From Candidatus Poribacteria bacterium (GTDB lineage: Bacteria > Poribacteria > WGA-4E > WGA-3G), in the NCBI GenBank assembly GCA_965205015.1, contig OZ242029.1, positions 4,928,001-4,992,000 of the forward strand: 64,000 bases of DNA, given 5' to 3'. Positions within the stretch are counted from its first letter, which is position 1, and each line of letters opens with the position of its first letter. The notes below the pieces were generated by a model, which saw only the letters and a list, made by a program, of their open reading frames with translations, ran no database searches and had not been told where the DNA came from. Made by a program: the position numbers and the translations under genes. Shown here one piece after another: positions 3,648 to 32,615 of the stretch.

Positions 3648-3928
3648 TTAATATTCCTCTCATCAAGTGACAACCACGCGTGCGCAAACTAACAGTTTAC
3701 GCTACAAAATCACGCGGATCATGAAGCATCTTGAATTAAAAATGGTGTCTGTATACTCAAAATCTTGTAAGTAGCAACTTGGGTTATGTTATATAATGTG
3801 ATACCATATTCTAGGGGAGAAGTCAACCCTTTATTTTTCGATTAGTGATTAAAATGGAAATGTTGAGATAAGGTAAATTAACTTTGATTTTCAGAACGTA
3901 AGCCGAATCATTCTGTCGTTCAAAATCC

Positions 3929-3957
3929 TTGACATTACACGTCGAGTTTTATATATT
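3929..3957 (+). promoter_or_regulatory. sigma70-type promoter for the sugar operon
   Basis: TTGACA-17 bp-TATATT upstream of 4087. Confidence 0.6.
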
Positions 3958-4086
3958 ATACCCAAAGTTCACGAACTTTTGGTAATTATTTTTCGTCGAT
4001 TTGAAACCGAGTGGCGTGCTTAATAACAACACTCACACCTCTTATATCGTTAGGATTTATACACAAAATATAGGAGCACAGGAAAT

Positions 4087-12047: not shown

Positions 12048-12113
12048 AATATGCTTTAATATACTGATTCTTCTAAGTTATGTCAAGCGAAACATTTTTT
12101 ACATTTTTTCCCC

Positions 12114-12150
12114 TTATGCAACCTTTGCTTCTTTAAATCGCGTCATTAAT
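12114..12150 (+). promoter_or_regulatory. Candidate ECF-type promoter, copy 1
   Basis: TTATGCAAC-N18-CGTCATTAAT; repeated at 16932, 27047 and 28466 with identical spacing. Confidence 0.6.
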
Positions 12151-12215
12151 AGTAACAGCAGTCTGAGAGTCGCGCGTTAAAAACGCGCATGCTTAACTCA
12201 CTTTGGAGAGACTTG

Positions 12216-15122
12216 ATGAAAAACGAAGATGCACAACTGGTTAACCGCTTCTTGACAGGTGACGAAAGTGCCTTTACCACGCTGGTAAAAAAATACCAGA
12301 AGCGCGTCCATGCACTCACATGGCGGAAGGTCGGCGATTTCCATACTGCCGAGGAACTCACACAAGACACCTTCCTCAAGGCATACCAGAAACTTGGGAC
12401 GCTGAAGAATCCGAGTCAGTTCGCTGGATGGCTCTATGTCATCGCTGATCGGCTCTGTATCGCGTGGCACCGAAGGCAGAAACCACCAATGGAATCTTTG
12501 GAAACAACGAGTGGAGAGGAGGTCGAGGCATCGTCTTACCGGCACTACGAAGATGAACAACGTGAAGCAGCTTCTGTTGAACATCGTTATGGACGCATTA
12601 GAGACCTCTTAGAAAAACTCCCCGAGAGCGAACGGACAGTTGTGACACTCCACTACCTCGGAGAAATGACGTGTAAAGCGATTGGTGAGTTTTTAGGTGT
12701 CTCTCCGAACACAGTTAAGAGTCGTCTCCAGCGTGCACGAAACCGTTTAAAGGAGCAAGAAACCATGATTCAGGAAACGCTTGGGGGTGTACATTTACCT
12801 ACCTCCTTCACCGATCACATTATGAAGCAAGTCGGTAACATAAAACCGGCATCTCCGACGCACAGCAAACCGTTTCTGCCGTGGGCAATCTCTGCCGCAA
12901 CAACCGTCTTTATCTTTCTAATAATGGGTGCGGGATCTCAATACCTTTCTCACTTCCAGAAGCCGTATAACCTGAACGCCCCATCGGAAACCACCGTTGA
13001 AATTATTGATGCCCCTATTGTCTTGGATACACAAGCAAAACCGGATTTACGGAACCAATCTGGACGTTTCGATACCACCGGTAAGAGCAGCAGTGCCGGT
13101 CCACAAGTCTCGGAACCTGTTATGCTTGCCGCTGCACAGGTAGAAAAGGAGCCGCGCCCGTCAACAAAACAGCAATGGATACAGGTAAGCGGTCCAAAAG
13201 AAGAAGCCTCCGTATCCGACTTATTGGTCAGTTCTTGGGGAGATGTCTATGCGGTTTCAAAAATTGGTATCTACAGATTAGCATCAGATGCCCCCACATG
13301 GACGCTCGTCAGTCCACTGCCACCAGAGACTTCTGTAGACAATCACGGTATACGGATGGCAGAACGAAAGGACACCCTCTATCTCGTCTTTCCTAACGGT
13401 GTGTTCGCTTCAAAAGACAGAGGTGAAACATGGACAAAACTGGGTGGGCGCCCAGAGGGACGCGCCATTGGATTGGTGATAACGGATGAAGCCTGGTATC
13501 TCACGCTTCGAGACGATGAAGGTATCTTCCGATCTACAGATGAAGGGAAGCAGTGGACCTCACTCGACAATGAAATAGCAGACAGCGGTGTTAATGCAAT
13601 AGCTGCCGTTGAAAACACAGTGTTTGTTGGGACAAATCAGGGGCTCTACCGCTTGCGTCCAGAGATGTCGGAGAAACTGACAATAGATACCACGAAAGCC
13701 ATCCGCTCTTTGTCAGTCTCCGGAAATAATCTCTATGTCGGGACAGGACTCGATCTAACGCAATTGGAAACCGAGGAAGGAAGGAAGGCACACTTTGAGA
13801 AACTTATAGAGGAATTTACGAGTAACGCCAATGCCCGGCAATGGGAGATTTTCCGCTCAACCGATTTGGGCGAGTCGTGGACAGATATAACACCGACCAG
13901 CACATCTCACATGATGAGAGCTGCATCGAGTACTAAAGTCGTGTCAACCGGAAATGCTGTTCTGGCATTAGGTATGATAAACTTCCACTCAACCGATAGG
14001 GGAAAAACATGGACAGAATTTGGCTTCAATAGCGACGAAATGATGTTGGATATATTTCCTGCTGTCGCAGTGGACGAAAATACCATCTTCAAAACCGGAC
14101 CCTCTGAACTTAAACGCTCAACCGATGGCGGCGAATCGTGGCATCTGTTTACAGATGGAATCGTAGGCACCAACGTATTCAACTTAGTTGGATTCAAAAA
14201 TGAACTTTATACGCCTGCCTCCAAAGGTGTTGCCAAATCCAGCGATGGCGGCGAGTCGTGGAACAAACTCACCGTGAGTTCTGGTGATCTCACACTAAAA
14301 CCAGTAGAGAAAGACACCTCTCTGATTTCCCCAAAATTCACAATTGCTGACGGTGTGCTTTATGTAGTCTCATTCTCTTTAGTCCCCGAGCATCAAATGC
14401 GTATTTTCCGTCTCTCTGCGAACGGAAACGTGTTAGTCCCTATCCAAGGAATACCTGCCCTTGAAGGTGCTCCTTCCACCAAGGATATAAAAGATTGGGC
14501 AGATAAATTGTTCCGATTCGATATATTTCCCGGAGCGTTCGCAGTCAGCGGTGAGACCTTCTATGCGGAATACACGCGGCAGCTGCTCCGGTGGAAACGT
14601 GGTGAATCAAAATGGTTTAATACCGGATTGGTAGATACAGACAGCGCAGATAAAAGCGATGATTCTATGAGGGGTTTCAAACTTGCTGTTTCAGAAGAGA
14701 CCGTCTATGTTGGAAAACGCGATGGACATCTCTTTCAATCGCTTGATAGTGGCAACACATGGAAAGATTTAACCCCAAACCTCCCACTCCGTTTTGAGCG
14801 TTTCAATGGGATAACCTTCGCGGGTTCAACGGTCTATGTTGCGACTGACGCAGGTGTCTTGACCTCAGAAGACGGTGAACATTGGCGCGCACTCACCGAT
14901 ACGGCAGGAACGCATCCCCTCATTGATCGAATGGCAGTGGATATCACAACAGTTTACGGTGTTGGGGATGAAGGTATCTATCGACTGAACAATCGCGATG
15001 AATGGGAAAAGATCTCTCCAGAAGTGCCCGATAGCGTCACCGCTTTCGTGATCAATAATGATCAATTCTATATCGTAACCGAACATCGCGGGATGTTCCA
15101 CGTCTCTCTCGAAAAAGAATAA
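12216..15122 (+). CDS. ECF sigma factor fused to a TM helix and an Asp-box/BNR beta-propeller (copy 1)
   Basis: sigma2 'AEELTQDTFLKAY...FAGWLYVIA', sigma4 'LPESERTVVTLHY...IGEFLGVSPNTVKSRLQRARNRL', hydrophobic 'LPWAISAATTVFIFLIMGAG', several SxDxGxxW Asp-boxes; RBS GGAGA. Confidence 0.9.
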   Translation: MKNEDAQLVNRFLTGDESAFTTLVKKYQKRVHALTWRKVGDFHTAEELTQDTFLKAYQKLGTLKNPSQFAGWLYVIADRLCIAWHRRQKPPMESLETTSGEEVEASSYRHYEDEQREAASVEHRYGRIRDLLEKLPESERTVVTLHYLGEMTCKAIGEFLGVSPNTVKSRLQRARNRLKEQETMIQETLGGVHLPTSFTDHIMKQVGNIKPASPTHSKPFLPWAISAATTVFIFLIMGAGSQYLSHFQKPYNLNAPSETTVEIIDAPIVLDTQAKPDLRNQSGRFDTTGKSSSAGPQVSEPVMLAAAQVEKEPRPSTKQQWIQVSGPKEEASVSDLLVSSWGDVYAVSKIGIYRLASDAPTWTLVSPLPPETSVDNHGIRMAERKDTLYLVFPNGVFASKDRGETWTKLGGRPEGRAIGLVITDEAWYLTLRDDEGIFRSTDEGKQWTSLDNEIADSGVNAIAAVENTVFVGTNQGLYRLRPEMSEKLTIDTTKAIRSLSVSGNNLYVGTGLDLTQLETEEGRKAHFEKLIEEFTSNANARQWEIFRSTDLGESWTDITPTSTSHMMRAASSTKVVSTGNAVLALGMINFHSTDRGKTWTEFGFNSDEMMLDIFPAVAVDENTIFKTGPSELKRSTDGGESWHLFTDGIVGTNVFNLVGFKNELYTPASKGVAKSSDGGESWNKLTVSSGDLTLKPVEKDTSLISPKFTIADGVLYVVSFSLVPEHQMRIFRLSANGNVLVPIQGIPALEGAPSTKDIKDWADKLFRFDIFPGAFAVSGETFYAEYTRQLLRWKRGESKWFNTGLVDTDSADKSDDSMRGFKLAVSEETVYVGKRDGHLFQSLDSGNTWKDLTPNLPLRFERFNGITFAGSTVYVATDAGVLTSEDGEHWRALTDTAGTHPLIDRMAVDITTVYGVGDEGIYRLNNRDEWEKISPEVPDSVTAFVINNDQFYIVTEHRGMFHVSLEKE

Positions 15123-15158
15123 TAGACATTTGCGCAACGATTCTCTCTACGTGTCTCC

Positions 15159-15202
15159 AATAGAGTGGTGATTTTACCCATAGCATCACCACTCTATTTT
15201 TA
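15159..15202 (+). terminator. Probable intrinsic terminator
   Basis: AATAGAGTGGTGAT / ATCACCACTCTATT stem followed by a T-run, right after ECF copy 1. Confidence 0.6.
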
Positions 15203-15348
15203 TTCTAAAGGAACTTATCGCTAAACCCAACCTAAAAAGGGAGTTGATAACCCGCACGATTCTGTAGCGTATCTTGTTAGGGTGCGCACAATCTTTTGAA
15301 CAGACTCACAAACTATACTACAAAAATGGCAACTTGTGTTATATTATA

Positions 15349-16757
15349 CTAAAGTTTGGACAATATTGTAAGTTTCAAGCTGCTTTGTCGAAAGGTAGCG
15401 TGGTATCGTGTTCAGATATGGGATGAATATTCTGTGAGTTGGTCTCTTCTTGGGAACTCGCAGAATATTCCAACGCTCTGAGGTGCGACTGTAAATAAGC
15501 GACCCGTAACCCTTGGGTCAAGTGCTTCGGATGATACCAATGAATCCCGAGATGCTCGCAGACCTCTTTGACGCTCACGCGATCCGAGGGATACCGAGAC
15601 CCAAACTTCAAGAAGACCAACTTCGTCAGAGACGCTGCGACGAAACTCAGCTGCACGAAGCGATTGATGCTTTTGCGAGACTTGACCCGATAGGCATCAA
15701 ATCCGAAATGCTGCTTGACATCTCGAAACGCTGTTTCTATCTGCCACCTCTGCCGGTAGTATTCAACGATCTTCGGGAGCTCCAAGGTCATATCTGTTGT
15801 AAAGACACAGAAATACCGATACGGTTTTGAGGGTTTGACTCGGGTGCGTATCACGACGAGTCGGACGTCTGTCGGACACATTTTCGTCCGAACGACCTCT
15901 GAGGCGACCTGATACGTTTTTTCCAGGATGCAAACGTCTTGATACCGTAAGCGTTGGATGTTCAAACGGTCTCCATATTTCTTCGGACGCCCGCGCTGGG
16001 GGCGCTTCGGACGTTTCGGTAAACGATAAAACACCGCATTTGACTTCGCACGACACAACAGATGATGTCCGAGTTCCAAGAGCATTTCAAAGACTTTTCG
16101 GCGGCAGAACCCTCTATCAAAGAGGATCAACCCCCGGGGGAGCTTTGAACAGATACGTTTCAACACCGCATCACCTTTGTCCCGGAGCGTCTGAGGTGCA
16201 ATGAGTTTCACCCAGACCGGAAACAGCAACCAATCTGCCGCTGTCTCGCAGAGTAAACCTAATGCCCCAAACTCGTGTCCGAAGTGAAACTTTGATTGAT
16301 TCACGCGATGTTTACCGTGATAACTGAAGTTGCGGAAAAAATGTAAACCCCATTGGGTTTTACCCGTCTTCAAGGCTTTGGTGGCATCATAGACGTAAAC
16401 CCAGTCGGCAAACACGCCCTGGAGCCTTTTCATCAGGCACGCAGCAACCGCATCGGTATCCCATTTGCCCCGGGAAAGAAACTTCGGAAACGACCAATAG
16501 CGTGTCGCGGATCCACTCGACTGATACAGGTGCGTCAGGCTGCCTCCAGGCGGTTGAGTCATAAACCCAAAAATAAATGCTTGAAAAAGCGCAAAGTTTT
16601 GGGAGTTGAACAAATGACGAAAATCCGATACAATACTTTCTAAGTGGAGAAGCAGGGGCATTTTTGCCTTCCTTTCAAAACAGTGGTATGTTTATGAAAG
16701 GATACCTGCTTTTCTGCTTTCAAACATCTTAATTCTTTAAAATTGTCCAAACTTTAG
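15349..16757 (-). mobile_element. Intact insertion sequence, IS4 superfamily (IS701/ISH3-like)
   Basis: Perfect 16-bp terminal IR CTAAAGTTTGGACAAT / ATTGTCCAAACTTTAG, flanked by a 9-bp direct repeat TATATTATA (15340-15348 and 16758-16766). Confidence 0.92.
15375..16661 (-). CDS. DDE transposase
   Basis: 'YVYDAT', 'LILFDRGF', and YREK-like 'YRQRWQIETAFRDVKQHFG'. Confidence 0.92.
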   Translation of the reverse strand: MPLLLHLESIVSDFRHLFNSQNFALFQAFIFGFMTQPPGGSLTHLYQSSGSATRYWSFPKFLSRGKWDTDAVAACLMKRLQGVFADWVYVYDATKALKTGKTQWGLHFFRNFSYHGKHRVNQSKFHFGHEFGALGLLCETAADWLLFPVWVKLIAPQTLRDKGDAVLKRICSKLPRGLILFDRGFCRRKVFEMLLELGHHLLCRAKSNAVFYRLPKRPKRPQRGRPKKYGDRLNIQRLRYQDVCILEKTYQVASEVVRTKMCPTDVRLVVIRTRVKPSKPYRYFCVFTTDMTLELPKIVEYYRQRWQIETAFRDVKQHFGFDAYRVKSRKSINRFVQLSFVAASLTKLVFLKFGSRYPSDRVSVKEVCEHLGIHWYHPKHLTQGLRVAYLQSHLRALEYSASSQEETNSQNIHPISEHDTTLPFDKAA

Positions 16758-16762
16758 TATAT

Positions 16763-16881
16763 TATAGTAAAACCCGTAATTACTTATACACTAACACAAG
16801 GGCGAGGATGCAATCCTCGCCAGCGGTGGCGGGGTGTTTGTTCCCTGACGAACTGTAAACATATTTTTGGATTTTACTATA
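16763..16881. mobile_element. MITE-like element with TATAGTAAAA ends
   Basis: TATAGTAAAACCC ... GGATTTTACTATA (12/13 IR); internal palindrome GGCGAGGATGCAATCCTCGCC. Confidence 0.6.
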
Positions 16882-16931
16882 AAAAAATACTTCAGCGTAG
16901 CCGTGATATAATTTCTCCAATTTTTTTCTCG

Positions 16932-16968
16932 TTATGCACCATTCTGTTCTTTAAATCTCGTCATTAAT
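16932..16968 (+). promoter_or_regulatory. Candidate ECF-type promoter, copy 2
   Basis: TTATGCACC-N18-CGTCATTAAT, followed by a leader similar to that of copy 1. Confidence 0.6.
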
Positions 16969-17032
16969 TAGTGACAGCAGTCGGATAGTCGCGCGTTAAA
17001 AACGCGCACTCTTAAGTTACTGGAGAGACTTG

Positions 17033-19978
17033 ATGAAAAACGAAGATGCACAATTGGTCAACCAATTTCTGACAGGCGACGAGAACGCCTTCACCGCACT
17101 CGTAAAAAAATATCAGAAAAGCGTCCACGCCCTCACATGGCGGAAGGTTGGCGATTTTCATACCGCTGAGGAACTCACACAGGACACCTTCCTGAAAGCA
17201 TATCAGAAACTCGCGACGTTAAAGAATCCGAATCAGTTCGCGGGATGGCTCTATGTGATCGCCGATCGGCTCTGTATCGACTGGCATCGAAAGCAGAAAC
17301 CACCCATGGGATCCTTGGAAACCACCAGCGGAGAGGAGATTGAAGAATCTTCCTACCGTCACTACGAAGACGAACAACGTGAGGCAGCCTCCGTCGAACA
17401 TCTTCAAGAACACGTCAAAAGTCTTTTAGAGAAACTGCCGGAGAGCGAACGCACAGTTGTGACACTTCACTATCTTGGAGAAATGACCTATAAAGCGATC
17501 AGTGAATTTTTAGGCGTATCCCCAAACACGGTTAAAAGCCGCCTCCAACGCGCACGGAACCGTTTAAGACAGGAAGATGATAGGGTGCGCGACACCCTTA
17601 GTAGTGTAGATCTGCCCATAACTTTCACCGAAAATATTGTAAAACAAATCGCTGACATAAAACCTGTAGCCCCTACGAACAGTAAACCCTTAATACCTTG
17701 GGCGATCTCTACCGCAACAGCCATCTTTATTTTTTTAATAATGGGTGTAGGGTCGCAATATCTCTCCCGTTTCCAGAAACCGTATAACCTGAACGCTCGA
17801 TCGGAAACCATCGTTGAAATCATCGACACCCCCATTGTCCTTGACAGAGAAGAAAAACCGGACTTGCGGAACCAAGCCGGTCACCTCGATACCACCGGTA
17901 AAAGTAAAGGTGCCGGTCCACAAATTTCAGAACCTGTTGTGCTTGCCGCTGCTCAAGTAGAAAAGGAGACGCACCCGTCAACAAAACAGCAGTGGACACA
18001 AGCAAACGGTCCCGAAGGCGGAACAGTATCAGGATTACTTCTCAGCTCGACAGGTGATATCTACACCGTTTCCGCGAGCGGTATCTATAGATTCACACCA
18101 AATGCGTCTGTATGGGCACTTGTGAGTCCATTGCCGCCAGAGGCTTCCGAAGACTACAGCTGGAAACCGATGGCAGAACGAAACGGCACCCTCTACCTTG
18201 TATCGACTGATAAAGTGTGGGTCTCAACCGATAGCGGCGAAACATGGGAGTCGCTGGGTCCGCGTCCAAAAGGAAACCCTATCGGACTCGCCATCACGGC
18301 TCAAGGCTTATATCTCGCCCTTGAAAATCAGATTTTCCGATCCGAAAACGCAGGTAAACAGTGGATTCCGATGGACGATGGGATAATCAACGAAAACACT
18401 CACATTCTCACACTGACTGCTATCGAAAACACCGTGTTTGTAGGCATGAACCATGGACTCTACCGTTCGCGATCAGGGATGTGGGAAAAATTGCCGGTGG
18501 ATACCACCAAAGCCATCCATTCCTTGGCGGTTTATGAAAACGACCTCTATGTCGGGACAGGTCCCGATATTTCTCAATTAAACACTCCCGAAGGTGCTGG
18601 GGCGTTCATCGGTCAAGTTATGAGCAGTGACACCCGAAGTTCATGGGAGCTCTTCCACTCGGTCGACTTGGGCGATACGTGGACGGAACTAACACCGAAA
18701 ATCACTTCGTTCACAATGAAAATATCACCGGGTGCTAAAGTCCTGGTGAGTGGAGAGACAGTGTTAGTCTTAGGCGTCACGACGTTCCGCTCAACGGATG
18801 GTGGAAAAACATGGACGGACTTTGGATTTGACACATCCGATATGAATACGGCACTGAATTCAGTGACACTCAGTATGTTTCCAGCAGCGACAGTGGGCAA
18901 AAATACATTTCTCAAAGTTGGAATGCACGACGGACTCATCCGTTCAACCGATGGGGGTCAGTCGTGGTACCCATTCACGAAAGGGATGGTAGGTACCAAA
19001 GTGTTTGACCTGGTAGCATTCAAAAATGCGCTCTACGCAAATACCGGCTCAGGTATCGCCAAATCCGCTGATAACGGGAAGTCCTGGAAAACTCTTGCTG
19101 TGAATTCCGCAGAACTTGTGTTAGAACCGTCAGACCTAACTATACCTACGGATATCCTGATTTCCGCAAAATTAGCGATCTCTGACGGTGTGCTTTACGG
19201 CATCTCAGCAGCCTTCGACACACAAAACGAAGTTCGCCTTTTTCGTCTCTCCGCGAGCGGCGACGTGTTAGTACCTATCCAGGGACCTGCTACCTTCGGT
19301 GGAAATCTCTCCATAATAGCCATGATGGGTCTGGCAGATGCCACTCGGCAACTCGAAAGGTTCTCTGCAGAGTTCGCAGTGAGCGGCGAGACATTTTATA
19401 CAGAATATAAGAGACGGCTTTTCCGCTGGAAACGCGGTGAACCAGAATGGTTCAACACCGGATTGATAGATAAAACCCCGCTCTCTGATAATTATAACGA
19501 TGCTGTGAAAGAGCGTCAGAAAAGTATCGCACTTGCTGTTTCAACGGAAACCGTCTATGTCGGAAAACGTGATGGACATCTCTTTCAATCGTTTGATAGT
19601 GGCAACACATGGAAGGACCTGACTTCAAATCTGCCGCTGCGCTTCACGTACTTTAAAGAGATCGTCTTTGCGGGTCCAACAGTGTATGTCGCTACAGACA
19701 CGGGTGTCTTGACTTCAGAAACAGGTGAACACTGGCGAGCGATCACCGATAAAACCGGGAGCCATACCGTTATAGATCGAATTGCTGTGTCCGGTACCTC
19801 GGTTTACGGTGCTGGGAATGAAGGTGCCTATCAATTGAACCGTCGCGGTGAATGGAAAAAAATCTCGCCAGAAGTGCCAGGTCGGGTTATTTCTCTCGTT
19901 ATTAACGACGATACACTTTACGCTGTGACGGAAAAACGCGGGATGTTTCAGGTCTCGCTTGAAGAAGAAAACTATTGA
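17033..19978 (+). CDS. ECF sigma factor fused to a TM helix and an Asp-box beta-propeller (copy 2)
   Basis: Same architecture as 12216; sigma domain nearly identical, central propeller diverged. Confidence 0.9.
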   Translation: MKNEDAQLVNQFLTGDENAFTALVKKYQKSVHALTWRKVGDFHTAEELTQDTFLKAYQKLATLKNPNQFAGWLYVIADRLCIDWHRKQKPPMGSLETTSGEEIEESSYRHYEDEQREAASVEHLQEHVKSLLEKLPESERTVVTLHYLGEMTYKAISEFLGVSPNTVKSRLQRARNRLRQEDDRVRDTLSSVDLPITFTENIVKQIADIKPVAPTNSKPLIPWAISTATAIFIFLIMGVGSQYLSRFQKPYNLNARSETIVEIIDTPIVLDREEKPDLRNQAGHLDTTGKSKGAGPQISEPVVLAAAQVEKETHPSTKQQWTQANGPEGGTVSGLLLSSTGDIYTVSASGIYRFTPNASVWALVSPLPPEASEDYSWKPMAERNGTLYLVSTDKVWVSTDSGETWESLGPRPKGNPIGLAITAQGLYLALENQIFRSENAGKQWIPMDDGIINENTHILTLTAIENTVFVGMNHGLYRSRSGMWEKLPVDTTKAIHSLAVYENDLYVGTGPDISQLNTPEGAGAFIGQVMSSDTRSSWELFHSVDLGDTWTELTPKITSFTMKISPGAKVLVSGETVLVLGVTTFRSTDGGKTWTDFGFDTSDMNTALNSVTLSMFPAATVGKNTFLKVGMHDGLIRSTDGGQSWYPFTKGMVGTKVFDLVAFKNALYANTGSGIAKSADNGKSWKTLAVNSAELVLEPSDLTIPTDILISAKLAISDGVLYGISAAFDTQNEVRLFRLSASGDVLVPIQGPATFGGNLSIIAMMGLADATRQLERFSAEFAVSGETFYTEYKRRLFRWKRGEPEWFNTGLIDKTPLSDNYNDAVKERQKSIALAVSTETVYVGKRDGHLFQSFDSGNTWKDLTSNLPLRFTYFKEIVFAGPTVYVATDTGVLTSETGEHWRAITDKTGSHTVIDRIAVSGTSVYGAGNEGAYQLNRRGEWKKISPEVPGRVISLVINDDTLYAVTEKRGMFQVSLEEENY

Positions 19979-19990
19979 TGTTATAGATTT

Positions 19991-20267
19991 AAGGCTACGG
20001 GCACCCACAAGGGGTGCCCCTACGGCTGGTGTCGGTTCAGGATATGGGCACCTACAAGGCTACGGGCACCCACAAGGGGTGCCCCTACGGCTGGTGTCGG
20101 TTTAGGATACGGGCACCTACAAGGCTACGGGCACCCACAAGGGGTGCCCCTACGGCTGGTGTCGGTTCAGGATATGGGCACCTACAAGGCTACGGGCACC
20201 CACAAGGGGTGCCCCTACGGTTGGTGTCGGTTTAGGATACGGGCACCCACAAGGGGTGCCCCTACGG
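19991..20267. repeat. Tandem array of a 65-bp REP-containing unit (BIME-like)
   Basis: Units start at 19991, 20056, 20121 and 20186; five GGGCACCCACAAGGGGTGCCCCTAC palindromes. Confidence 0.9.
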
Positions 20268-20314
20268 GATGTAAACTTATTTTTGTAATTCATCATATTT
20301 TTGGAGGAATCAAA

Positions 20315-22309: not shown

Positions 22310-22324
22310 TTTCAGAATCCTATT

Positions 22325-22354
22325 GTATGGACAGGTATCCGTGCCTGTCCATAC
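22325..22354. terminator. Hairpin after the S55 gene
   Basis: GTATGGACAGG / CCTGTCCATAC inverted repeat; no clear U-tract. Confidence 0.4.
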
Positions 22355-22396
22355 GGCATCAAACGTCTATCACCGATAACACGAAAAGGACAAACA

Positions 22397-23188
22397 ATGC
22401 AGCATTCTCTACGTTTCACAGTTTTTATACTTTTCGCGATTGCTGTTCAATTGTTGGGCTGCTCAGAAGACCCCGACACTGACACGACGCCTGTCGAAAA
22501 ACTTGTTGCCGAACCTATACCCCCTAAACCTACACCCGAAGACACGTTCACGAAACTAAAGATGTTGTTTCCAAAACCCATTTTTGATGGAGATTTCACA
22601 AGACTCGATGAGGTGACAACTTCTAAAACCTATTTGGACTTTGTTACCCAAGAATATAGAACAAAGAAACCATTTAAAACGTTGGCAGAGTACCTCGAGG
22701 TAGCCAAACCTGACCCGGAAAGATATAAACCCTTTTTGAAGGAATCTATCGGGAAATCCAAGGAAGAAGACATAGCCATTATTCATCAGCTAACTTTAGA
22801 TTACCGCTGTGCAAACGTAATACTGTATCAGATGATACACGGCGGTGAAGACAATATCAAAGATGGCCTCAATGCGATATTTGCTGTGCTGGAAAAAAAA
22901 TTATCAATCCTTGATGAAGCACCTGTAAAGGCTTGGATAGAAATACATCTACCAAATCCAGACCAAGCAAAAGAATTCTTCACTGCCCTTGAACATTTCG
23001 TAACTGAAACCGAAAGGAAGGACGCGCTTTTCATACAGGAACAGTTTGAGCAACACGGCAAAGATGATGGGCTTTTATGGCTCGCCGTGCACAACCCTGC
23101 GCTAACCGCAGAAATTCTCAATAATTTCACGAATACTAATGTGTTTCTGAGATGGACTGAAGGCATTTTTTTTCAACAAAATCCATAG
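22397..23188 (+). CDS. Hypothetical lipoprotein
   Basis: Signal peptide with lipobox 'LLGC'; helical; paralogous to 26145. Confidence 0.75.
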   Translation: MQHSLRFTVFILFAIAVQLLGCSEDPDTDTTPVEKLVAEPIPPKPTPEDTFTKLKMLFPKPIFDGDFTRLDEVTTSKTYLDFVTQEYRTKKPFKTLAEYLEVAKPDPERYKPFLKESIGKSKEEDIAIIHQLTLDYRCANVILYQMIHGGEDNIKDGLNAIFAVLEKKLSILDEAPVKAWIEIHLPNPDQAKEFFTALEHFVTETERKDALFIQEQFEQHGKDDGLLWLAVHNPALTAEILNNFTNTNVFLRWTEGIFFQQNP

Positions 23189-23361
23189 GAAAAACATATT
23201 CCGTTTCACTATTGCAGCCGAGCCGTTGTTGGAATTAAAGATTCCTCACAGGTTTGGCTGTTCTTGTTTTGCTGATAAACTGGATTTCTGGGTCAACTGG
23301 AACATCTAATTGAGCGTTACAGTCTGCAATTCAAGTTCCAAGTAGAGGGAAAAAATTTTTC

Positions 23362-26061
23362 ATGAAATTTTGCTTATATTTTACGCTGTGTGTTACGCTC
23401 ATGATGCCGTTCTCTGTTTCCGCGGAAACGGACAATTCTGAAGAAAACTTGACGCCGAAAAGGAAAAGAAGCATCTGGCAGCGCGTCTTTCCCCGCACAG
23501 GTGATATAGAAGGCACTGTCTACCAACGCGATACCGATGCCCGATTGGTTGAAGCAGAGGTGTATATCGTTGAAACCGATCAGCAGCGAAAAACAGGTAA
23601 AGACGGAACGTTCCACTTTACCGAAATCCCCGTCGGAACATATACGCTGTCCATATCCCATCCAACTCACAATACCTCCACAGAAATTCCGATTAAGATT
23701 CGCGCAGGTGAGACGCTCCGCGGGAGATTTTACCTTGGCGCAGCGGTTCCATTTATCAACACTACCGATAGCGGAGATATAGACGGGTATGTTTACAGCC
23801 AAATAACAGGAAAACCGCTTGCTGAGGCAGAGGTCCGTTTCATCGAAATTGACGTCTCTGGCAGAACGGATGCCGCTGGAAACTTTCGGTTTATCGCTAT
23901 CGTTCCTGGGACTTATACTTTGTCGATTACACACGCGACACACAAGATACCGACGACTACCACAGTAGCGGTAACAGCAGGGGATACCACGCAGGTAAAG
24001 ATATACCTCGGCACAGGGATAAGACTTGAAACGGTTGTTGTAGAGGGGCAACGTCTCCCCCCAACGATAAGCCGCAAAGAGATCCGCGGCAGCGAACTGA
24101 TCCGGATTCCCGGCACCGGCCGTGATGCGCTCAAAGGACTCACGACGCTGCCGAGCATCGGTATCCCCAACGATCTTTTTGGTATTCTCTATATCCGCGG
24201 GAGTGCACCTGGGGAGACGCTTCTCTATTTCGACAGAACGCCACTCGGTTATCCGTTTCACTATGCCGGACTTTTCTCAACAATTAACTCCGATAGTATT
24301 GAGGACATCCGTATCTATGCCGGTGGGTACGGTGCTGAATTTGGGTTGGATTCACAATCGGTTATAGACATCCGTTCGCGCGAAGCGTTAGAAAAGAGAT
24401 GGGCGGGTGTGCTTAATCTGGACATTATATCGCCCTCTGGGTTTCTTGAAGCCAAAATTGGGGACAAAGGCTACGCGTCTGTCGCTGGACGATTCACCAT
24501 CTATAATCTCATACTGGGACTTTTCTTTGACTGGACATTTCCGACCTGGTCAGACTATCAACTTAAATTTGCTTATCAACTCACGGAAAAGCATCACCTC
24601 ACGCTCAACGGTTTAGGCGCGACAGATCATTTTGACTTCTCTAACTTTGGATCGGAAGAATCAGAAGAAATAGATGATGTTTCCGCCTATTTTAAAAACG
24701 GATTTGAAGCGGAAGGCATTCACCTCCGTTCTGATTTCACTGACAAACTCACGTCTCATCTCTCTCTGACGCGTTCCCACAACTTTCTCAATATCCACTT
24801 CGGCGACACCTCACGTCAAGAGGACAAGCCTGAAAGTGAAAGTTTCATCTACAGTGTGAAGGTTAACGTCCCGACCTATACCCTTCGCGAAGACGTGTCC
24901 TACACATTAACGCCAACGCTTCAATTAGAGCCTGGATTTCTCCTTGCCTTTAGTCCAGCCAAGAGTCTCACATGGACCTCGTCTGCAGGAAACATAGATT
25001 TTGAGGCTGACGAGGAACCTTCATGGACACAGAAATCTGACGAATTTAATTACACGTTTCGACGTGCTGAGGGCTACTTACAAGCGCGCTACGATCCGTT
25101 ATCGTTTTTGTCAGTCGCCCTTGGAACGCGATTCGATTACCTCAATCTGACGGAAGAGCTCTCAATCCAGCCGCGCGGGAGTCTTAGCCTCACACTGCCA
25201 TCAACTTCCACGCTTCGGTTCGCTTACGGCAGATATGAACAGAGTCCGTTAGCATATCAGGTGCTAAAGGCAGATGGAAACCGATCCCTAAAATCGAGCC
25301 TGACCGAACATTATATCATGGCGTTAGAACACCAACTATCCCCACAAACGGAACTCAAGTTCGCGCTTTATTACAAAGACATGGAAAAATTAGTTACGCG
25401 GTCTGTCAATATTGAAACACTCTTTGAGGATTCGGATGCCGCGGTTACAACAGGTTATTTCAATCAGGGTGTCGGGTTTGTGAGTGGGGCGGAGATATTC
25501 CTGCGGCATCGTGTCAGCGAAAAATTCTTTGGATGGGTATCTTATGCCTATACCCATGTCGAGCGACGTGAGACCCCGGACGCCGCTTACAAACCGTTTC
25601 TCTTCAATAATACACACATTGTCAGCATCGTTGCCAACTACAGTCCAACGACGAAAACAGAGATCGGCGCGAAGTGGCAATATTCCAGCGGCACCACCGC
25701 AGTTCCCTTAAGCAATCTCATCACGGTTCAAGACCCTGTGACGGCGGGAATGCATCCACTCATCTCTGATGTTGCCGGCGCGATTTTTCCGACAGAATTC
25801 CCGTCTTATCACCGCTTGGATCTCCGTTTTAGCGAGAAAAGAAAGTGGTGGGGACTCCCTTTGACAGCATATACCGAGATTTTGAATGTCTACAATAAAA
25901 AAAATAAAATAAGATTCCGTTTGGCTGATAGTCTTCTGGAGGAACTTGAAACCTTGGAACTTGAGGCGGACACGGATGAACTGGGTTTTGAAATCAGTGA
26001 GTATTTTGAAATCCCTCAACTTCGCTTTACCTTTTCTGCCGGACTCATCTATGAATTTTGA
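23362..26061 (+). CDS. TonB-dependent receptor with two N-terminal carboxypeptidase-regulatory-like domains
   Basis: Duplicated 'GDI.G.VY...G.F.F..I..GTYTLSI.H.TH' domains, 'LETVVVEG', plug 'LYIRGSAP...GGYGAEFG', barrel ending in 'LIYEF'. Confidence 0.88.
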   Translation: MKFCLYFTLCVTLMMPFSVSAETDNSEENLTPKRKRSIWQRVFPRTGDIEGTVYQRDTDARLVEAEVYIVETDQQRKTGKDGTFHFTEIPVGTYTLSISHPTHNTSTEIPIKIRAGETLRGRFYLGAAVPFINTTDSGDIDGYVYSQITGKPLAEAEVRFIEIDVSGRTDAAGNFRFIAIVPGTYTLSITHATHKIPTTTTVAVTAGDTTQVKIYLGTGIRLETVVVEGQRLPPTISRKEIRGSELIRIPGTGRDALKGLTTLPSIGIPNDLFGILYIRGSAPGETLLYFDRTPLGYPFHYAGLFSTINSDSIEDIRIYAGGYGAEFGLDSQSVIDIRSREALEKRWAGVLNLDIISPSGFLEAKIGDKGYASVAGRFTIYNLILGLFFDWTFPTWSDYQLKFAYQLTEKHHLTLNGLGATDHFDFSNFGSEESEEIDDVSAYFKNGFEAEGIHLRSDFTDKLTSHLSLTRSHNFLNIHFGDTSRQEDKPESESFIYSVKVNVPTYTLREDVSYTLTPTLQLEPGFLLAFSPAKSLTWTSSAGNIDFEADEEPSWTQKSDEFNYTFRRAEGYLQARYDPLSFLSVALGTRFDYLNLTEELSIQPRGSLSLTLPSTSTLRFAYGRYEQSPLAYQVLKADGNRSLKSSLTEHYIMALEHQLSPQTELKFALYYKDMEKLVTRSVNIETLFEDSDAAVTTGYFNQGVGFVSGAEIFLRHRVSEKFFGWVSYAYTHVERRETPDAAYKPFLFNNTHIVSIVANYSPTTKTEIGAKWQYSSGTTAVPLSNLITVQDPVTAGMHPLISDVAGAIFPTEFPSYHRLDLRFSEKRKWWGLPLTAYTEILNVYNKKNKIRFRLADSLLEELETLELEADTDELGFEISEYFEIPQLRFTFSAGLIYEF

Positions 26062-26144
26062 TATGCTTACTTAAAAGGTGGCAATCCATCCCCAAAGATG
26101 CTATGATGCCGTTATAATATTCAAGAATAAAGGGGAGACCCCAG

Positions 26145-26951
26145 ATGAAAAAACCGGTCGTTCTGATTCTTATCGGTATCGGCGTTGCACTTCTCGTTGT
26201 CGGGATCGTCTTTGTCGTTCCGTGGTTCGGTAAAATGATGGACGAAATGGAACAGTTAGCCGATAAGCACGTGCAACACAGGCAGGCTTTAAGAATGTCT
26301 GCACGCGAACCGTTGACGGATGAACAGGAAAACCTTTTGTCCCAACTTCTCAAAATCACACAGGCACCAGATGCGGGGCAAAAAAACGATTTTGACGGTA
26401 TCCTGTCAAGCGAACCCTATCTAACATATCTAAAGGCGCGGGAAGGGGAAGACTACGCAGATTTTCGAGCATACGTCGAGGCAATGCCGACAGAAAACAT
26501 GAAAACCATTGCGCTCTCCCGAATCAAAGCCACACTCGGAACGGATAAAAGCGATGAAGAATTAGACGTATGGACGGATTACTATTTCATCGTCCGAGCG
26601 TGGGGAATCACCGTTGAAGATCCGCGGGACAATCTGAAAGAACTCAATGAACTCCATCAAACATACCTCATAGAGCCGCTAATGAACAGCGGTTCAGACA
26701 TATCCGACCTGCATACCCAAATCGTCCAAATCGGTATGTCCTCTATATTCATGACAGAGGAAAATAACGTGTTCAAAGAGGCGTGGCGTGAACGCTTAGA
26801 AAGATATGGCGAACAAGAAGGACTCCTCCGATGCGCGATTGCGGCTCCAGGTGAATTCGCGCTCATGTGCTCGTTTTTTCCAGACTTCGCAACCTTCCAC
26901 GAATGGATACTCACACGTCCAGAACCTGAATCCGAAGAATCAGAACAATAG
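26145..26951 (+). CDS. Hypothetical N-terminally membrane-anchored protein
   Basis: N-terminal TM helix, RBS GGGAGA; C-terminus similar to 22397. Confidence 0.75.
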   Translation: MKKPVVLILIGIGVALLVVGIVFVVPWFGKMMDEMEQLADKHVQHRQALRMSAREPLTDEQENLLSQLLKITQAPDAGQKNDFDGILSSEPYLTYLKAREGEDYADFRAYVEAMPTENMKTIALSRIKATLGTDKSDEELDVWTDYYFIVRAWGITVEDPRDNLKELNELHQTYLIEPLMNSGSDISDLHTQIVQIGMSSIFMTEENNVFKEAWRERLERYGEQEGLLRCAIAAPGEFALMCSFFPDFATFHEWILTRPEPESEESEQ

Positions 26952-27046
26952 TATCCACCACAACACCGGCACCCGAGATGTGAGGGTTCTTTCCAATTTC
27001 AAACAATTTTGCCATCTTTTCGATAAAAATCCAGATTTTTTTCGCT

Positions 27047-27083
27047 TTATGCACCCTTTTCGGCGCGAACCTGTATCATTAAT
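27047..27083 (+). promoter_or_regulatory. Candidate ECF-type promoter, copy 3
   Basis: TTATGCACC-N17-GTATCATTAAT, with the same box-to-box distance as copies 1 and 2. Confidence 0.55.
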
Positions 27084-27276
27084 TATAAAAGGGGCATATA
27101 TCACCTCACGGAAAAATGAACGGTAGCGTTTCTGAAATTTTTCCGCCCCGATATTTGATGTCAATGATAGCCGAATTGTCGGCAACGTTTAAAACGCGTC
27201 ATTAGGATATAGACGCAGATTATCAAAGGTTAAACTTTAAACACGAGGCGACATAACGTCTCTGGGGGAAAAAAAA

Positions 27277-28299
27277 ATGAAAAGCATTTTTCACGGTAGA
27301 AAAACTCTCGCAAGGCTTTCACTCTTCGCAACTTTAGGACTCGCCATTCTTTGGGGTGTCTCTCTCTATTTATCTGCACACGGTCATGAAATTGGAGCGT
27401 CGAATATGCAGTTACGTGAACACATTGAACTCGACTCCAACGCACCGTTCGCGAATAAAAAGTATACCGGTCCCCAAAACGCGCAGGAATTGATGAAAGC
27501 GTTAGATGCAGATTACGATAAGAGCCTGGCAAAGACCAGTGTGAGTGTATCCGGTAAGTTCACAGGGGCAAAAACTGTGACTTATAGTAGTGATCTCACA
27601 ATACGTGAGATAGATGCAAGGTATCCACGGGCGGAATGGCTTCAGCTCCTTTTGGAGAAGGGCATCACTATAGATGATTCCCTCGAGTATGCGTCCTTGT
27701 TGTCAAAGCGTTACACTCTGGCACTCTTGGAAGACAATCCAGATTTGCGGCAGTCAGGATTCCTCGGTATTCCAGCAACGGATGATTGGGAAACCTATAA
27801 AGTCGCTTACATCGATAAGTTGGTAAACGATCACACCAAGATCCAAGAAGCCGTAGAACAGGTTGAACGCAGTAAGAAGGTAATTGAGGGTGCGAAAACG
27901 CAGATTCAACAGATTCAAGCGCACACTAAACTCGCCATTGGATGTGGCACAGCACACCTTGAACGTGCCATGACTCAACTCGAGCGTAGCACAGCACACC
28001 TTGAACATGCGAAACCACAGATTGAACAGAGTCAAGCGCATGCTAAACTCGCCATCGAATGCAGTAAGGCGGTAGTTGAAGATGCCAAGACACAGATTCA
28101 ACATAGCAAAGCGCAAATTGAACGCGCTATGACTCAACTCGAACATAGCATAACTCAACTTGAACGTGCAAAAAAAGAGTTGAGTTCACAACAACTCGGA
28201 CACATCCAGAAGCAGATTGAGCATATACAACGGACTTTAGTCCCACCCAAAAAACCGGCACCTGCGCAGGAATCGATTCCTCCGCAGGGGTCAAACTAA
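27277..28299 (+). CDS. Exported hypothetical protein with C-terminal heptad/coiled-coil repeats
   Basis: Signal/TM N-terminus; repeated 'ERAMTQLE', 'QAHxKLAIxC', 'AKTQIQ'. Confidence 0.75.
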   Translation: MKSIFHGRKTLARLSLFATLGLAILWGVSLYLSAHGHEIGASNMQLREHIELDSNAPFANKKYTGPQNAQELMKALDADYDKSLAKTSVSVSGKFTGAKTVTYSSDLTIREIDARYPRAEWLQLLLEKGITIDDSLEYASLLSKRYTLALLEDNPDLRQSGFLGIPATDDWETYKVAYIDKLVNDHTKIQEAVEQVERSKKVIEGAKTQIQQIQAHTKLAIGCGTAHLERAMTQLERSTAHLEHAKPQIEQSQAHAKLAIECSKAVVEDAKTQIQHSKAQIERAMTQLEHSITQLERAKKELSSQQLGHIQKQIEHIQRTLVPPKKPAPAQESIPPQGSN

Positions 28300-28465
28300 A
28301 ATTTCTGTTCTGTGGATATTGCGAGGCTTACGCACTGTCCGTTTCTCTGGATGCCGTCTAAGCAAACAACAGAGGCACGGTATTCGCGTAAGCTTTGCTT
28401 AAAAACGCCTTAGATTTCTGGTAGCATAGATGTGGCGTCGATCAATTTTCTATTATTTTTTAAGG

Positions 28466-28502
28466 TTATGCACCCTTTCCGTTTGAAAAAAGTATCTTTA
28501 AT
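28466..28502 (+). promoter_or_regulatory. Candidate ECF-type promoter, copy 4
   Basis: TTATGCACC-N17-GTATCTTTAAT upstream of the 28580-29335 unit. Confidence 0.55.
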
Positions 28503-28579
28503 TATAAAATAGCTTGAGCAACGTAGAACGGTATTTCAAATCGGCGTGTTATCAATAACACGAAAAAAGGAACGACATC

Positions 28580-29302
28580 ATGAAAATTTTAAGCATTGGA
28601 TTGGGCGTATTTATCCTAACTTGTTCTGCTTGGGCAGGAACATTTGTGGAGACCTTCAATGACAACGGAAATCTCGAAAAGTGGCAGGAGCTGATCAGAT
28701 TCGGTTTAGATGCGCCCGGTCCTTGGCATATTGTTGATGGCGAACTTCAGTATATCCTGGACTTTGATGATGGCGGCTTGACTCGTTTACTTACGACTGG
28801 GGATGAAATGTGGCAAGATTACAGCATCGAATTTGATGTTAAACCCCTTAGAAAACACGGGGAGGGAAACATTGCGATTGCCGCGCGAATTAATCAGACA
28901 TGGGGAGTCGTATGCACGATTGGCGACCTACCCTTCCCCGAACCTGAATCAATGGCGACCTGTTATGGCGGCAATTTGCAAGGGCATGCTTTTCTAAACT
29001 TTGCACAGGAACGTCATCGCTCGTTGAAACCGTCGAGATGGCATCATCTGAAGTTGAGCGTTAAGGGAAATCTCTTGACTTTCTGGATTAATGAAAAGCA
29101 AGTTCTCGGACCGATAGTTTTGAAAGCTATAGGCAATTTTCCTGACTACCCTAATGGTAAAGTCGGTTTCGGGGTCTCGAATTATTCGGTACTCTTTGAT
29201 AATATTACCATTACTGGTGCCGATATTCCACATCAGCGTGGGTTATCCGTAACACCGAGCGCAAAACTTGCGACCACCTGGGGACACTTGAAGCAGCTTT
29301 AG
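28580..29302 (+). CDS. Secreted ConA-like / DUF1080-like protein with C-terminal KLAxTW motif
   Basis: Signal peptide, 'WHIVDGEL', 'WQDYSIEFDVK', 'WHHLKLSVKG', 'GKVGFG...FDNITIT'; ends 'LSVTPSAKLATTWGHLKQL'. Confidence 0.75.
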   Translation: MKILSIGLGVFILTCSAWAGTFVETFNDNGNLEKWQELIRFGLDAPGPWHIVDGELQYILDFDDGGLTRLLTTGDEMWQDYSIEFDVKPLRKHGEGNIAIAARINQTWGVVCTIGDLPFPEPESMATCYGGNLQGHAFLNFAQERHRSLKPSRWHHLKLSVKGNLLTFWINEKQVLGPIVLKAIGNFPDYPNGKVGFGVSNYSVLFDNITITGADIPHQRGLSVTPSAKLATTWGHLKQL

Positions 29303-32322: not shown

Positions 32323-32379
32323 TAGTGTTCCGAAGGAACAATAGCTTTTCACAAGTATATTTAGAATCAGTTATGTCCT

Positions 32380-32615
32380 TTGCTTGATAAGAAACAAGTC
32401 GTGATTATGGATAATGCGTCCTTCCACAAGGGATCAAAGACGGCGCGGTTGGTTGCGGAAGCAGGTGCGAGTTTGTTATTTTTAGCACCGTATTTTCCGG
32501 AGTTGAACCCGATTGAGAAAGACTTCGCTAACATTCATCGACAGTATCAATACAACCCCGGAACATCTATTGAGCAAATCATAAAAGTGTATAACTAATC
32601 ATCGGCTTTACTATA
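32380..32615 (+). pseudogene. IS630-family transposase remnant (C-terminal part and right end)
   Basis: 'VVIMDNASFHK', 'LLFLAPYFPELNPIEK'. N-terminal part missing; followed by TTTACTATA. Confidence 0.85.

Follow-up and report, generated by a model that had tools for sequence, protein, structure and literature searches.

Candidate autoregulated promoters of membrane-tethered ECF sigma factors in Poribacteria: a bipartite motif of fixed spacing and its sub-types

Our analysis concerns a stretch of 64,000 nucleotides from Candidatus Poribacteria bacterium (assembly GCA_965205015.1, contig OZ242029.1, positions 4,928,001 to 4,992,000 of the forward strand; hereafter the window) and, within it, a bipartite motif that stands in four copies beside three genes for sigma factors of the extracytoplasmic function (ECF) type, ECF1, ECF2 and ECF3. 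The comparisons given below make it very probable that RNA polymerase with the locally encoded ECF (group 4) sigma factors uses the four motifs as promoters: the copies have the anatomy of ECF promoters, sites of the same kind lie a short distance before the sigma genes of the family, and the boxes are conserved at orthologous positions in related genomes. The first-pass annotation of the window had proposed that the motifs are the target promoters of a local ECF regulon. The promoter reading is supported by the comparison, in which the promoter design recurs beside sigma genes among 76 loci; the restriction to a local system does not stand, because the sigma genes belong to a phylum-wide expanded family.

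Motif anatomy and the sigma genes of the window

The exact pattern TTATGCAMC-N20-TCWTTAAT occurs four times in the window, always on the + strand (12114-12150, 16932-16968, 27047-27083 and 28466-28502), and not once in any of 100 dinucleotide-preserving shuffles of the same DNA, in agreement with the four copies at identical spacing described earlier. Both half-sites are scarce (TTATGCA is found five times on the + strand and three times on the - strand, TC[AT]TTAAT six and four times, respectively), and all four complete copies lie in gene-free DNA 5' of + strand genes. With a matrix made from the four copies, these score 64.0-68.4 bits and the next best position of the window 4.7 bits; by this matrix the 64-kb window holds no fifth copy, and its other ~44 kb are motif-free. 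Two candidates for a fifth copy were rejected: TTATGCAAC at 49487 is part of a dehydrogenase gene and is not accompanied by the second box, and TCATTAATTA at 60630 is not accompanied by the first.

The conserved unit exceeds the earlier description. Each copy begins with a run of six to seven T, 4-5 nt 5' of TTATGCA and ~10 nt 5' of the -35 element, which reads TGCA(A/C)C (TGCAAC in copy 1, TGCACC in copies 2-4) and is followed by C/TTT, a -35-proximal T-tract. After a spacer of 18 nt (TGCAAC-N18-CGTC) comes the -10 element, which reads CGTC in the first two copies and TATC in the other two, set in the conserved TC(A/T)TTAAT; at its 3' side the motif is extended by TA/TTA directly after TTAAT. 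The two sub-types of the downstream box that had been reported, CGTCATTAAT at copies 1 and 2 and GTATC(A/T)TTAATTATAAAA at copies 3 and 4, were found again, and the downstream genes are the ones named at that time, namely ECF1, ECF2, a coiled-coil protein and a unit composed of a concanavalin A (ConA)-like protein and ECF3. The promoters, all of them predicted, and the genes that follow are:

12104..12152, + strand: promoter copy 1, 5' of ECF1; T-run 12104-12109; -35 TGCAAC 12117-12122, then CTTT; -10 CGTC 12141-12144 in TCATTAAT 12143-12150; probable start site ~12152-12157
12216..15122, + strand: ECF1; sigma2 + sigma4, membrane helix aa 219-241, BNR/Sortilin-type double beta-propeller aa ~320-968
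16921..16970, + strand: promoter copy 2, 5' of ECF2; T-run 16921-16927; -35 TGCACC 16935-16940; -10 CGTC 16959-16962 in TCATTAAT 16961-16968
17033..19978, + strand: ECF2; paralogue of ECF1 with 64% identity and the same architecture
27036..27085, + strand: promoter copy 3; T-run 27036-27042; -35 TGCACC 27050-27055; -10 TATC 27074-27077 in TCATTAAT 27076-27083, then TATAAAA
27277..28299, + strand: gene that directly follows copy 3 in this genome (the coiled-coil gene); 340-aa protein, weak coiled-coil matches, membrane helix near the N terminus (aa 10-34)
28456..28506, + strand: promoter copy 4; T-run 28456-28461; -35 TGCACC 28469-28474; -10 TATC 28493-28496 in TCTTTAAT 28495-28502, then TATAAAA
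28580..29302, + strand: ConA-like (3keto-disac_hyd / GH59-C lectin fold) protein with a signal peptide, predicted to be secreted; first gene of the ECF3 unit
29335..32322, + strand: ECF3; same architecture, 48% identical to ECF1

Copies 1 and 2 are part of a duplicated gene-plus-leader unit, which can be aligned from the T-run through to the ATG, and the locus contains transposase genes and other repeats. Both facts would suit the notion that the copies are functionless relics of duplication or of a small mobile repeat. However, copies 3 and 4 have only the ~50-nt motif in common and, as had been pointed out before, precede non-homologous genes (BLASTP best E = 34); conservation across the 76 loci described below is restricted to the box positions, while spacers and flanks differ; and the copies show neither terminal inverted repeats nor RNA structure. 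We therefore hold the notion of functionless relics to be most improbable. An RNA element was also considered and rejected, as the 61 nt folded around each copy had no unusual stability (z = 0.72, -0.71, 0.81 and 0.27).

Two observations concern the leaders. Those of the ECF1/2 type (in the window and in the loci L001, L002, L005 and L007) have in common AGTAACAG right after the -10 element and a small hairpin. This leader hairpin, GCGCGT-TAAAAA-CGCGC (12172-12189 and 16991-17008 in the window), was rejected as a structure, with six predicted pairs and no compensatory change in eight sequences; the leaders of L006 and L008 carry insertions of 110-150 nt at its position.

The sites might instead be promoters of the housekeeping sigma factor of Poribacteria or of another sigma factor outside the ECF group. 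Poribacteria might have a housekeeping consensus of their own, and copy 4 overlaps a 10-of-12 match to TTGACA-16-TATAAT, which is in favor of this explanation. Yet the four sites in 64 kb all lie in the sigma cluster and none precedes one of the ~45 other genes; sigma-70-like matches (TTGACA-N16-18-TATAAT) are not above expectation (31 in the region vs 24.8 +/- 4.8 in shuffles), and copies 1-3 have none at a threshold of at least 9 of 12. A sigma-54 promoter is contradicted as well, as no copy has the GG-N10-GC arrangement. Recognition by a non-ECF sigma factor is thus very unlikely.

The proteins themselves fit an ECF reading of the sites. Pfam matches to Sigma70_r2 and Sigma70_r4/r4_2 are present in all of ECF1-3 (those to Sigma70_ECF are weaker), no match to the sigma3 (r3) or r1 domains was found in them, and sigma2 plus sigma4 without sigma3 or sigma1.1 is the composition that defines the ECF group. 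The closest solved sigma factor by sequence is SigW of B. subtilis (E 5.6e-23), and the best solved relatives are SigW, AlgU/RpoE-type, SigH and SigE. For ECF1 the ATG at 12216 is the most likely start, rather than the mechanical start of the open reading frame (ORF) at 12189. The remaining ~750 residues of each protein contain BNR/Sortilin/PSII_BNR matches. Hydropathy analysis gives a single strongly hydrophobic segment per protein (aa 218-245 in ECF1-3), and the juxtamembrane stretch after the helix is highly conserved in the alignment of the paralogues. Of the cysteines, C81 in sigma2 is nearly invariant and a cysteine in sigma4 is present in ECF1 only.

The AlphaFold2 model of ECF1 (39-row alignment, mean predicted local distance difference test score 73.4, predicted template modelling (TM) score 0.59) comprises the sigma helices, regions of low confidence at 89-122 and 212-318, and well-predicted beta-propellers from ~320 to the end. 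The best structural matches to this model in the PDB are GH74 xyloglucanases (2cn2_A, E 6.8e-21, TM 0.62 on target, 16% identity). No anti-sigma domain, either class I or zinc-finger, is matched by a Pfam family in ECF1-3 or recognisable in the model of ECF1, and sigma4 is separated from the membrane helix by only ~30 residues with one short helix (198-207). Because sigma domains, a single helix and a propeller are combined in one chain with no such domain, the predicted architecture is that of membrane-tethered ECF sigma factors with an outward-facing GH74-like double propeller.

Recurrence of the motif beside related sigma genes

ECF1-3 belong to a large family specific to Poribacteria: among 8000 scored candidates 6290 proteins match at E <= 0.001, the species representatives hold at least 565 gene copies, and Poribacteria account for four of the five rows with a name in the 120 best homologues. 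The loci for comparison come from a search of a single genome for each species with ECF1, ECF2 and ECF3, which gave at least 605 matched stretches, at least 565 of them encoding relatives. The best 80 of these at least 605 stretches gave 76 loci with 1,395,633 bases from 47 assemblies (counted by accession prefix). All 76 loci come from records of metagenome-assembled genomes, and 74 are titled Poribacteria.

The exact pattern, which had been derived from the window independently of these loci, has 14 matches in them, 13 on the strand of the sigma gene, and none in each of 20 shuffles. The relaxed pattern TGCA[AC]C-N18-22-[GA]TC[AT]TT gives 49 matches including the four of the window, of which 42 have the spacing of the window, five are one base shorter and two have another spacing. 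A wider matrix of 55 positions, built from 38 distinct sites, gives 120 matches at 8 bits or more and 111 at 13 bits or more, totals that are partly circular because the seeds of the matrix are included.

Of these 111 sites, 98 are intergenic and only 13 fall under an ORF of at least 100 aa, though such ORFs cover 87.6% of the bases; 106 lie on the sigma strand, and for 109 an ORF starts within 330 nt downstream. The first gene is an ECF sigma gene at 70 sites (47 with a BNR propeller, 23 with another C-terminal part), and a same-strand sigma gene follows within the locus at 105, for 69 of them within 450 nt. Seen from the genes, 130 sigma genes of the family are preceded by 150 nt or more of available DNA, and 68 of these have a match within 450 nt; the distance from TGCA to the start of the family sigma gene has a median of 98 nt (range 53-301). 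Autoregulated ECF promoters are marked by a bipartite motif of fixed spacing that lies 5' of the sigma gene in the same orientation; here the spacing is identical in four of four copies of the window and in the 42 of 49 relaxed matches, and a match lies upstream of the 68 of 130 genes. In one case, L067, two near-identical promoter copies (9831 and 9948) stand 117 nt apart before a single sigma gene.

These data also bear on the possibility that a DNA-binding transcription factor, a repressor or an activator, uses the motif as its operator and that it is not a promoter. A conserved bipartite motif of fixed spacing 5' of genes could be such an operator, and binding of a protein is conceivable beside a promoter function. 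Against this, the two halves form neither a direct nor an inverted repeat, they match the -35 and -10 consensus of ECF promoters including the T-tract, the motif keeps one orientation relative to the downstream gene (the sigma strand at all but five of the 111 sites), and no transcription factor gene is conserved in the locus. We give the operator explanation very little credence.

At orthologous positions the boxes are kept while spacer and flanks drift. Copy 1 has orthologous sites in L002, L005, L006, L007 and L074; copy 2 in L001 (9903), L004 (9903) and L002 (8146); copy 3 in L001 (16960), L004 (15837), L054 (5560) and L046 (19316); copy 4 in L001 (19880), L004 (18770) and L054 (8508), and the same box type as in copy 4 is present in L057 (9884) and L066 (9788).

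Several points weigh against the reading of the sites as promoters of the local sigma factors. A membrane-tethered sigma factor needs a release step, yet no anti-sigma domain can be recognised. The -35 element of copies 2-4 contains ACC instead of the canonical AAC, the -10 element of copies 3 and 4 is TATC instead of CGT, and the arrangement TGCAAC-N18-CGTC goes one base beyond the range of 14-17 bp quoted for ECF spacers (PMC5758882). Almost half of the family sigma genes, 62 of 130, have no matrix match of at least 13 bits within 450 nt, although several of them have visibly divergent versions of this design and others are second in an operon like ECF3. The matrix sites were found with a pattern that comes from the window, and its own seeds are among the 111 matches. 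Finally, every locus was selected for holding a sigma gene, and for this reason the proximity to sigma genes is partly built in and the counts come with no genome-wide background.

Sub-types, target genes and the proposed circuit

The -10 tetramers at 79 family sites are CGTC (55), TATC (12), TGTC (9) and others (3), and among the -35 elements of the same sites TGCAACC and TGCACCC occur 21 times each. On a FastTree tree of the 79 sigma domains with an assignable site the -10 class changes 8 times, compared with 24, 24, 23, 24 and 21 changes in the first five of 200 label shuffles, and the -35 class changes 16 times, compared with 37, 37, 38, 35 and 35. The earlier suggestion that the two sub-types correspond to the ECF1/2 and ECF3 sigma domains is in agreement with the tree: CGTCATTAAT (CGTC) is present in 12 of 12 rows of the ECF1/2 clade and GTATCTTTAAT (TATC) in six of six rows of the ECF3 clade, in which protein identity goes down to ~55%. 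The orthologues of copy 3 all read GTATC(A/C)TTAAT (4/4: L001, L004, L054, L046), that is, an ECF3-type box at a target that is not a sigma gene. At 12 of 18 non-sigma sites the -10 tetramer is identical to that of the closest sigma-proximal site in the locus; when sites are drawn at random from other loci, the mean is 6.9 and the maximum of 2000 draws is 14. The mean box identity of these local pairs is 0.765 vs 0.697 +/- 0.022 for random other-locus sites.

One would argue that the sites are ECF promoters, but that all three sigma factors, or one other sigma factor of the family with its gene elsewhere, read all four of them, the sub-types being inherited without a role in specificity. The -35 element and the TC(A/T)TTAAT core are indeed common to all four copies, the sigma4 recognition helices of ECF1-3 are very similar, and several ECF sigma factors of Bacillus overlap in the recognition of CGTC promoters (PMC5758882). 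Moreover, related genes inherit related upstream DNA, so that the agreement between tree and sub-types is expected from shared descent alone and is no proof of cognate recognition. On the other hand, the sub-types are unchanged within clades that have diverged to 55-87% protein identity, while spacer bases vary; the copy 3 orthologues keep the box of the neighbouring ECF3-type gene although they do not precede a sigma gene; and the -10 agreement of local pairs lies above the random average. Recognition without specificity is a minority possibility, clearly less likely than its opposite. The pattern is the one that recognition of each box type by the sigma factors of its own clade would predict. 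We favor the assignment of CGTC boxes to ECF1/2 and of TATC boxes to ECF3 as somewhat probable, and do not put it higher because shared descent alone would give much of the pattern.

Copy 3 has a history of its own. By blastn the promoter and leader at 27021-27120 of the window correspond to 16932-17031 of L001, and from 27192 on the window matches the spacer before the coiled-coil gene. Between the two lies:

27119..27152, + strand: what is left of an ABC-2 permease gene, namely its last 34 nt at the 3' end; 97% match to L001 18417-18450

In L001, L004 and L054 the ABC-2 permease gene stands between the promoter and the coiled-coil gene, and an ABC2_membrane_2 gene follows the copy 3 orthologues in L001, L004, L046 and L054. 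The alignments indicate that copy 3 ancestrally drove the ABC-2 permease gene together with the coiled-coil gene and that ~1.4 kb have since been lost in this genome; the long leader after copy 3 (27084-27276) is due to this deletion of the permease gene. The 340-aa protein has orthologues in L001 (76%), L004 (70%) and L054 (53%), the ConA-like gene at 28580-29302 has one in L054, and both proteins are predicted to be exported. ECF3 starts 32 nt after the ConA-like gene and is therefore most likely transcribed from copy 4 through that gene.

Two further genes after ECF2 are without a motif of their own, and the matrix has no match between 19978 and 27047:

22397-23188, + strand: 263-aa lipoprotein-like protein
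23362-26061, + strand: 899-aa outer-membrane-receptor-like protein with CarboxypepD_reg x2 + Plug (Pfam)

Both follow the ECF2 orthologue in L001, and the 263-aa gene does so in L002 and L004 as well; they may be co-transcribed with ECF2. The predicted targets in the window are thus ECF1, ECF2 (perhaps with these two genes), the coiled-coil gene and the ConA-like/ECF3 unit.

In the family as a whole we scanned 35 non-sigma first genes after a site, leaving out L037:16081-16284 (67 aa), the ConA-like gene of L054 and the two non-sigma first genes of the window. They encode Laminin_G_3 (ConA-like) proteins (6), ABC2_membrane_2 (4), WD40 (4), PD40 (3), Kelch (2) and, once each, Trypsin_2, MacB/FtsX, DUF3352, TPR, Peptidase_M16_C and DUF3108-like proteins, while 10 match no family. 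The sensors in 16 of the 23 sigma genes without BNR are WD40 (11), LRR_4 (2), Kelch (1), Reg_prop (1) and nothing recognisable (1). As judged from these comparisons, the family is a conserved module of sigma domain, helix and juxtamembrane segment with exchangeable sensors, placed beside genes for lectin-like and propeller repeat proteins. Runs of two to four short genes were seen 5' of sigma genes in L038 (2761-8728), L056 (464-8724), L058 (4920-8490) and L014 (3965-9958); these genes encode ConA-like/Laminin_G_3, WD40, PD40 or Kelch proteins or match no family, each has its own promoter copy, and within each run all promoter copies are of one sub-type.

The circuit could work as follows. Transcription would start ~6-10 nt after the TC, which would give leaders of ~60 nt for ECF1 and ECF2, ~75 nt for the ConA-like/ECF3 unit and ~190 nt for the coiled-coil gene. 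The propeller would sense an extracytoplasmic ligand, probably a glycan because of its GH74-like fold. The signal would then free or activate the sigma domain, and regulated proteolysis of the kind known from fused sigma/anti-sigma proteins is the most likely way; alternatively, the sigma domain may be active while still tethered. The freed sigma factor would transcribe its own gene, a positive autoregulation, and neighbouring genes for envelope or secreted proteins. ECF1 and ECF2 would read CGTC boxes and might cross-activate each other's promoters, and ECF3 would read TATC boxes and so control two units, ConA-like/ECF3 and coiled-coil, the latter ancestrally with the ABC-2 permease gene in front.

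The rest of the window adds some observations on mobile and repeated DNA. The ECF1 gene is separated from the ECF2 promoter by the following gene:

15375..16661, - strand: intact gene for a DDE transposase of an insertion sequence (Pfam DDE_Tnp_1/DDE_5)

It is outside the regulon, and L002 has the ECF1- and ECF2-type genes side by side, without a transposase gene between them. A G+C-rich palindrome at 16801-16834, GGCGAGGAT-GCA-ATCCTCGCC, adjoins the transposase gene; a very similar one lies 5' of a sigma gene in L037, and it may be a dispersed repeat. After ECF3, an open stretch of 77 aa at 32365-32598 (+) resembles the C-terminal part of DDE_3 transposases (E 3.1e-13), so that the sigma genes are flanked by two mobile-element traces, 15375-16661 (-) and 32365-32598 (+). 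It is followed by a second ConA-like gene (32635-33333), a paralogue of the one at 28580-29302; the 312-nt gap before this gene contains the transposase fragment and no motif.

Directly after ECF2, at 19991-20254, a stretch of 65 bp is repeated in tandem (4.1 copies, 95% matches), with the palindrome GGGCACCC-ACAA-GGGGTGCCC in every unit. The mechanical ORF start of the next gene, 20144, falls inside this repeat, and its real start is probably GTG 20315 behind GGAGGAA; the resulting protein of 664 aa is without a Pfam match and has no counterpart in the syntenic loci L001, L002 and L004. At the beginning of the window, positions 1-4000 have a G+C content of 39% vs ~50% elsewhere and may be acquired DNA; this region holds a gene for an Eco57I/MmeI-type restriction-modification methylase (1116-3647, -). 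No Rfam family reached its gathering threshold in the window, and ARAGORN found no tRNA or tmRNA there.

Significance and comparison with known systems

Regulation in Poribacteria can be read from sequence only, because the organisms are uncultivated. A promoter that is tied to a large sigma family would hence be a tool to predict start sites and regulons in every Poribacteria genome, and it points to genes that would be switched on by signals from outside: ConA-like lectins, WD40/Kelch/PD40 propellers, an ABC-2 permease, peptidases and a receptor-like outer-membrane protein. As a wider and tentative picture, which we hold to be possible but somewhat less than probable, the family would form a massively expanded signalling system private to Poribacteria: single-pass tethered ECF sigma factors with exchangeable sensors would act through a clade-specific promoter on their own gene and on adjacent genes for secreted lectin-like and "eukaryote-like" repeat proteins, and the two variable bases of the -10 element, along with the variation in the -35 element, would be an address code that insulates dozens of paralogous circuits per cell. 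If this is true, the sensing of glycans and proteins of the host or of particles is linked directly to the repeat proteins that are thought to mediate the contact between sponge and symbiont. Related sigma/promoter pairs that differ by two bases are also the kind of orthogonal parts used in synthetic biology, and the ECF field gains a group that has its sensor attached directly to the sigma factor and no recognisable anti-sigma domain. For the specialist the promoter itself is expected and not surprising.

With respect to the sensor part, the tandem-propeller fold is common to ECF1, the GH74 xyloglucanases and the periplasmic sensors of Bacteroides hybrid two-component systems (BT4663, BT4673). 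In Bacteroides, the tandem propellers of these hybrid sensors bind oligosaccharides and control neighbouring genes for glycan use. In contrast, the output in the proteins studied here is a sigma domain and not a kinase or response regulator. The likeness is at the level of the fold; the match to the GH74 enzymes, in which two seven-bladed propellers make up a cleft and a pair of Asp residues is catalytic, is strong, and the Bacteroides sensors rank much lower as matches of the ECF1 model (TM 0.27-0.30). There may also be a likeness to ECF01-Gob, a group of Gemmata, on which a search of the literature gave nothing useful.

The promoter resembles those of SigW, SigM, SigX and SigV type in B. subtilis and the ones predicted for ECF21 and ECF30. 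ECF promoters typically have AAC in the -35 element and a group-specific -10 element, CGTC, CGTA and CGAC in the -10 element discriminate paralogous Bacillus sigma factors, and the -35-proximal T-tract (tgaAACnTTTt) is a known element that stimulates several ECF sigma factors (PMC5758882); copy 1 comes close to the motifs predicted for the two groups, GCAACC/CGTCT (ECF21) and TGCAACA/CGTC (ECF30) (supplement of PMC7826278). The same features are seen here: AAC followed by the T-tract in copy 1, CGTC in copies 1 and 2, a place 5' of the sigma gene itself, and small changes in the -10 element that separate paralogous sigma factors. Different from the descriptions in these sources are ACC in copies 2-4, TATC in copies 3 and 4, a spacer of 18 nt instead of the quoted 14-17 nt, conservation that runs on through TTAAT(TA), the run of six to seven T 5' of the -35 element, and the phylum.

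ECF57 of Planctomycetes is similar in that the sigma factor is fused via a membrane segment to a beta-propeller (WD40-like in some ECF57) and in that a carboxypeptidase-regulatory-like protein is encoded nearby, here at 23362-26061; ECF57 is proposed to become active when it is released from the membrane (supplement of PMC7826278). ECF57 has a C-terminal extension with ~2 membrane helices, a fully conserved pair of cysteines in sigma2 and sigma4 and no conserved promoter motif, whereas the proteins studied here have one helix and a sigma4 cysteine in ECF1 only, and their promoter is strongly conserved. ECF128s2 of Actinobacteria and ECF266 of Clostridiales have the same types of outer sensor domain, BNR/sortilin/YCF48 or beta-propeller in their case and BNR, Sortilin and PSII_BNR matches in ours, and ECF266 is predicted to be autoregulated via a motif that contains TGCAACA (supplement of PMC7826278). 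However, the sensor of these groups is on a separate one-helix anti-sigma factor with a cytoplasmic anti-sigma part, and here it is fused to the sigma factor with the short sigma4-to-helix gap described above. The main text of PMC7826278 does not mention "Poribacteria", "BNR" or "propeller", and a search of the literature, with subscription journals outside its reach, found among the papers listed no published description of this Poribacteria sigma family or its promoter.

A further known design is that of IutY (ECF243), SCO4117 (ECF52) and ECF53, in which one polypeptide has an N-terminal ECF sigma factor, a membrane segment and an extracytoplasmic sensing part (PMC8999054); ECF1-3 have the C-terminal membrane segment and the propellers from ~aa 320 that such a fused sensor calls for. 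These fused sigma/anti-sigma proteins are activated by regulated proteolysis and can serve as the model for the release of a tethered sigma factor (PMC8999054). Between sigma and membrane they have a recognisable anti-sigma or zinc-finger domain, in contrast to ECF1-3, in which none was detected. Autoregulated ECF promoters (textbook knowledge), sigma-sensor fusions (ECF57, ECF52/53, IutY) and BNR/sortilin or propeller sensors on separate anti-sigma factors are already known. New here are the lineage and the extent to which the family has expanded, a sensor fused to the sigma factor with no recognisable anti-sigma domain, the exchange of sensors among members, and the conserved promoter with its clade-specific -10 element.

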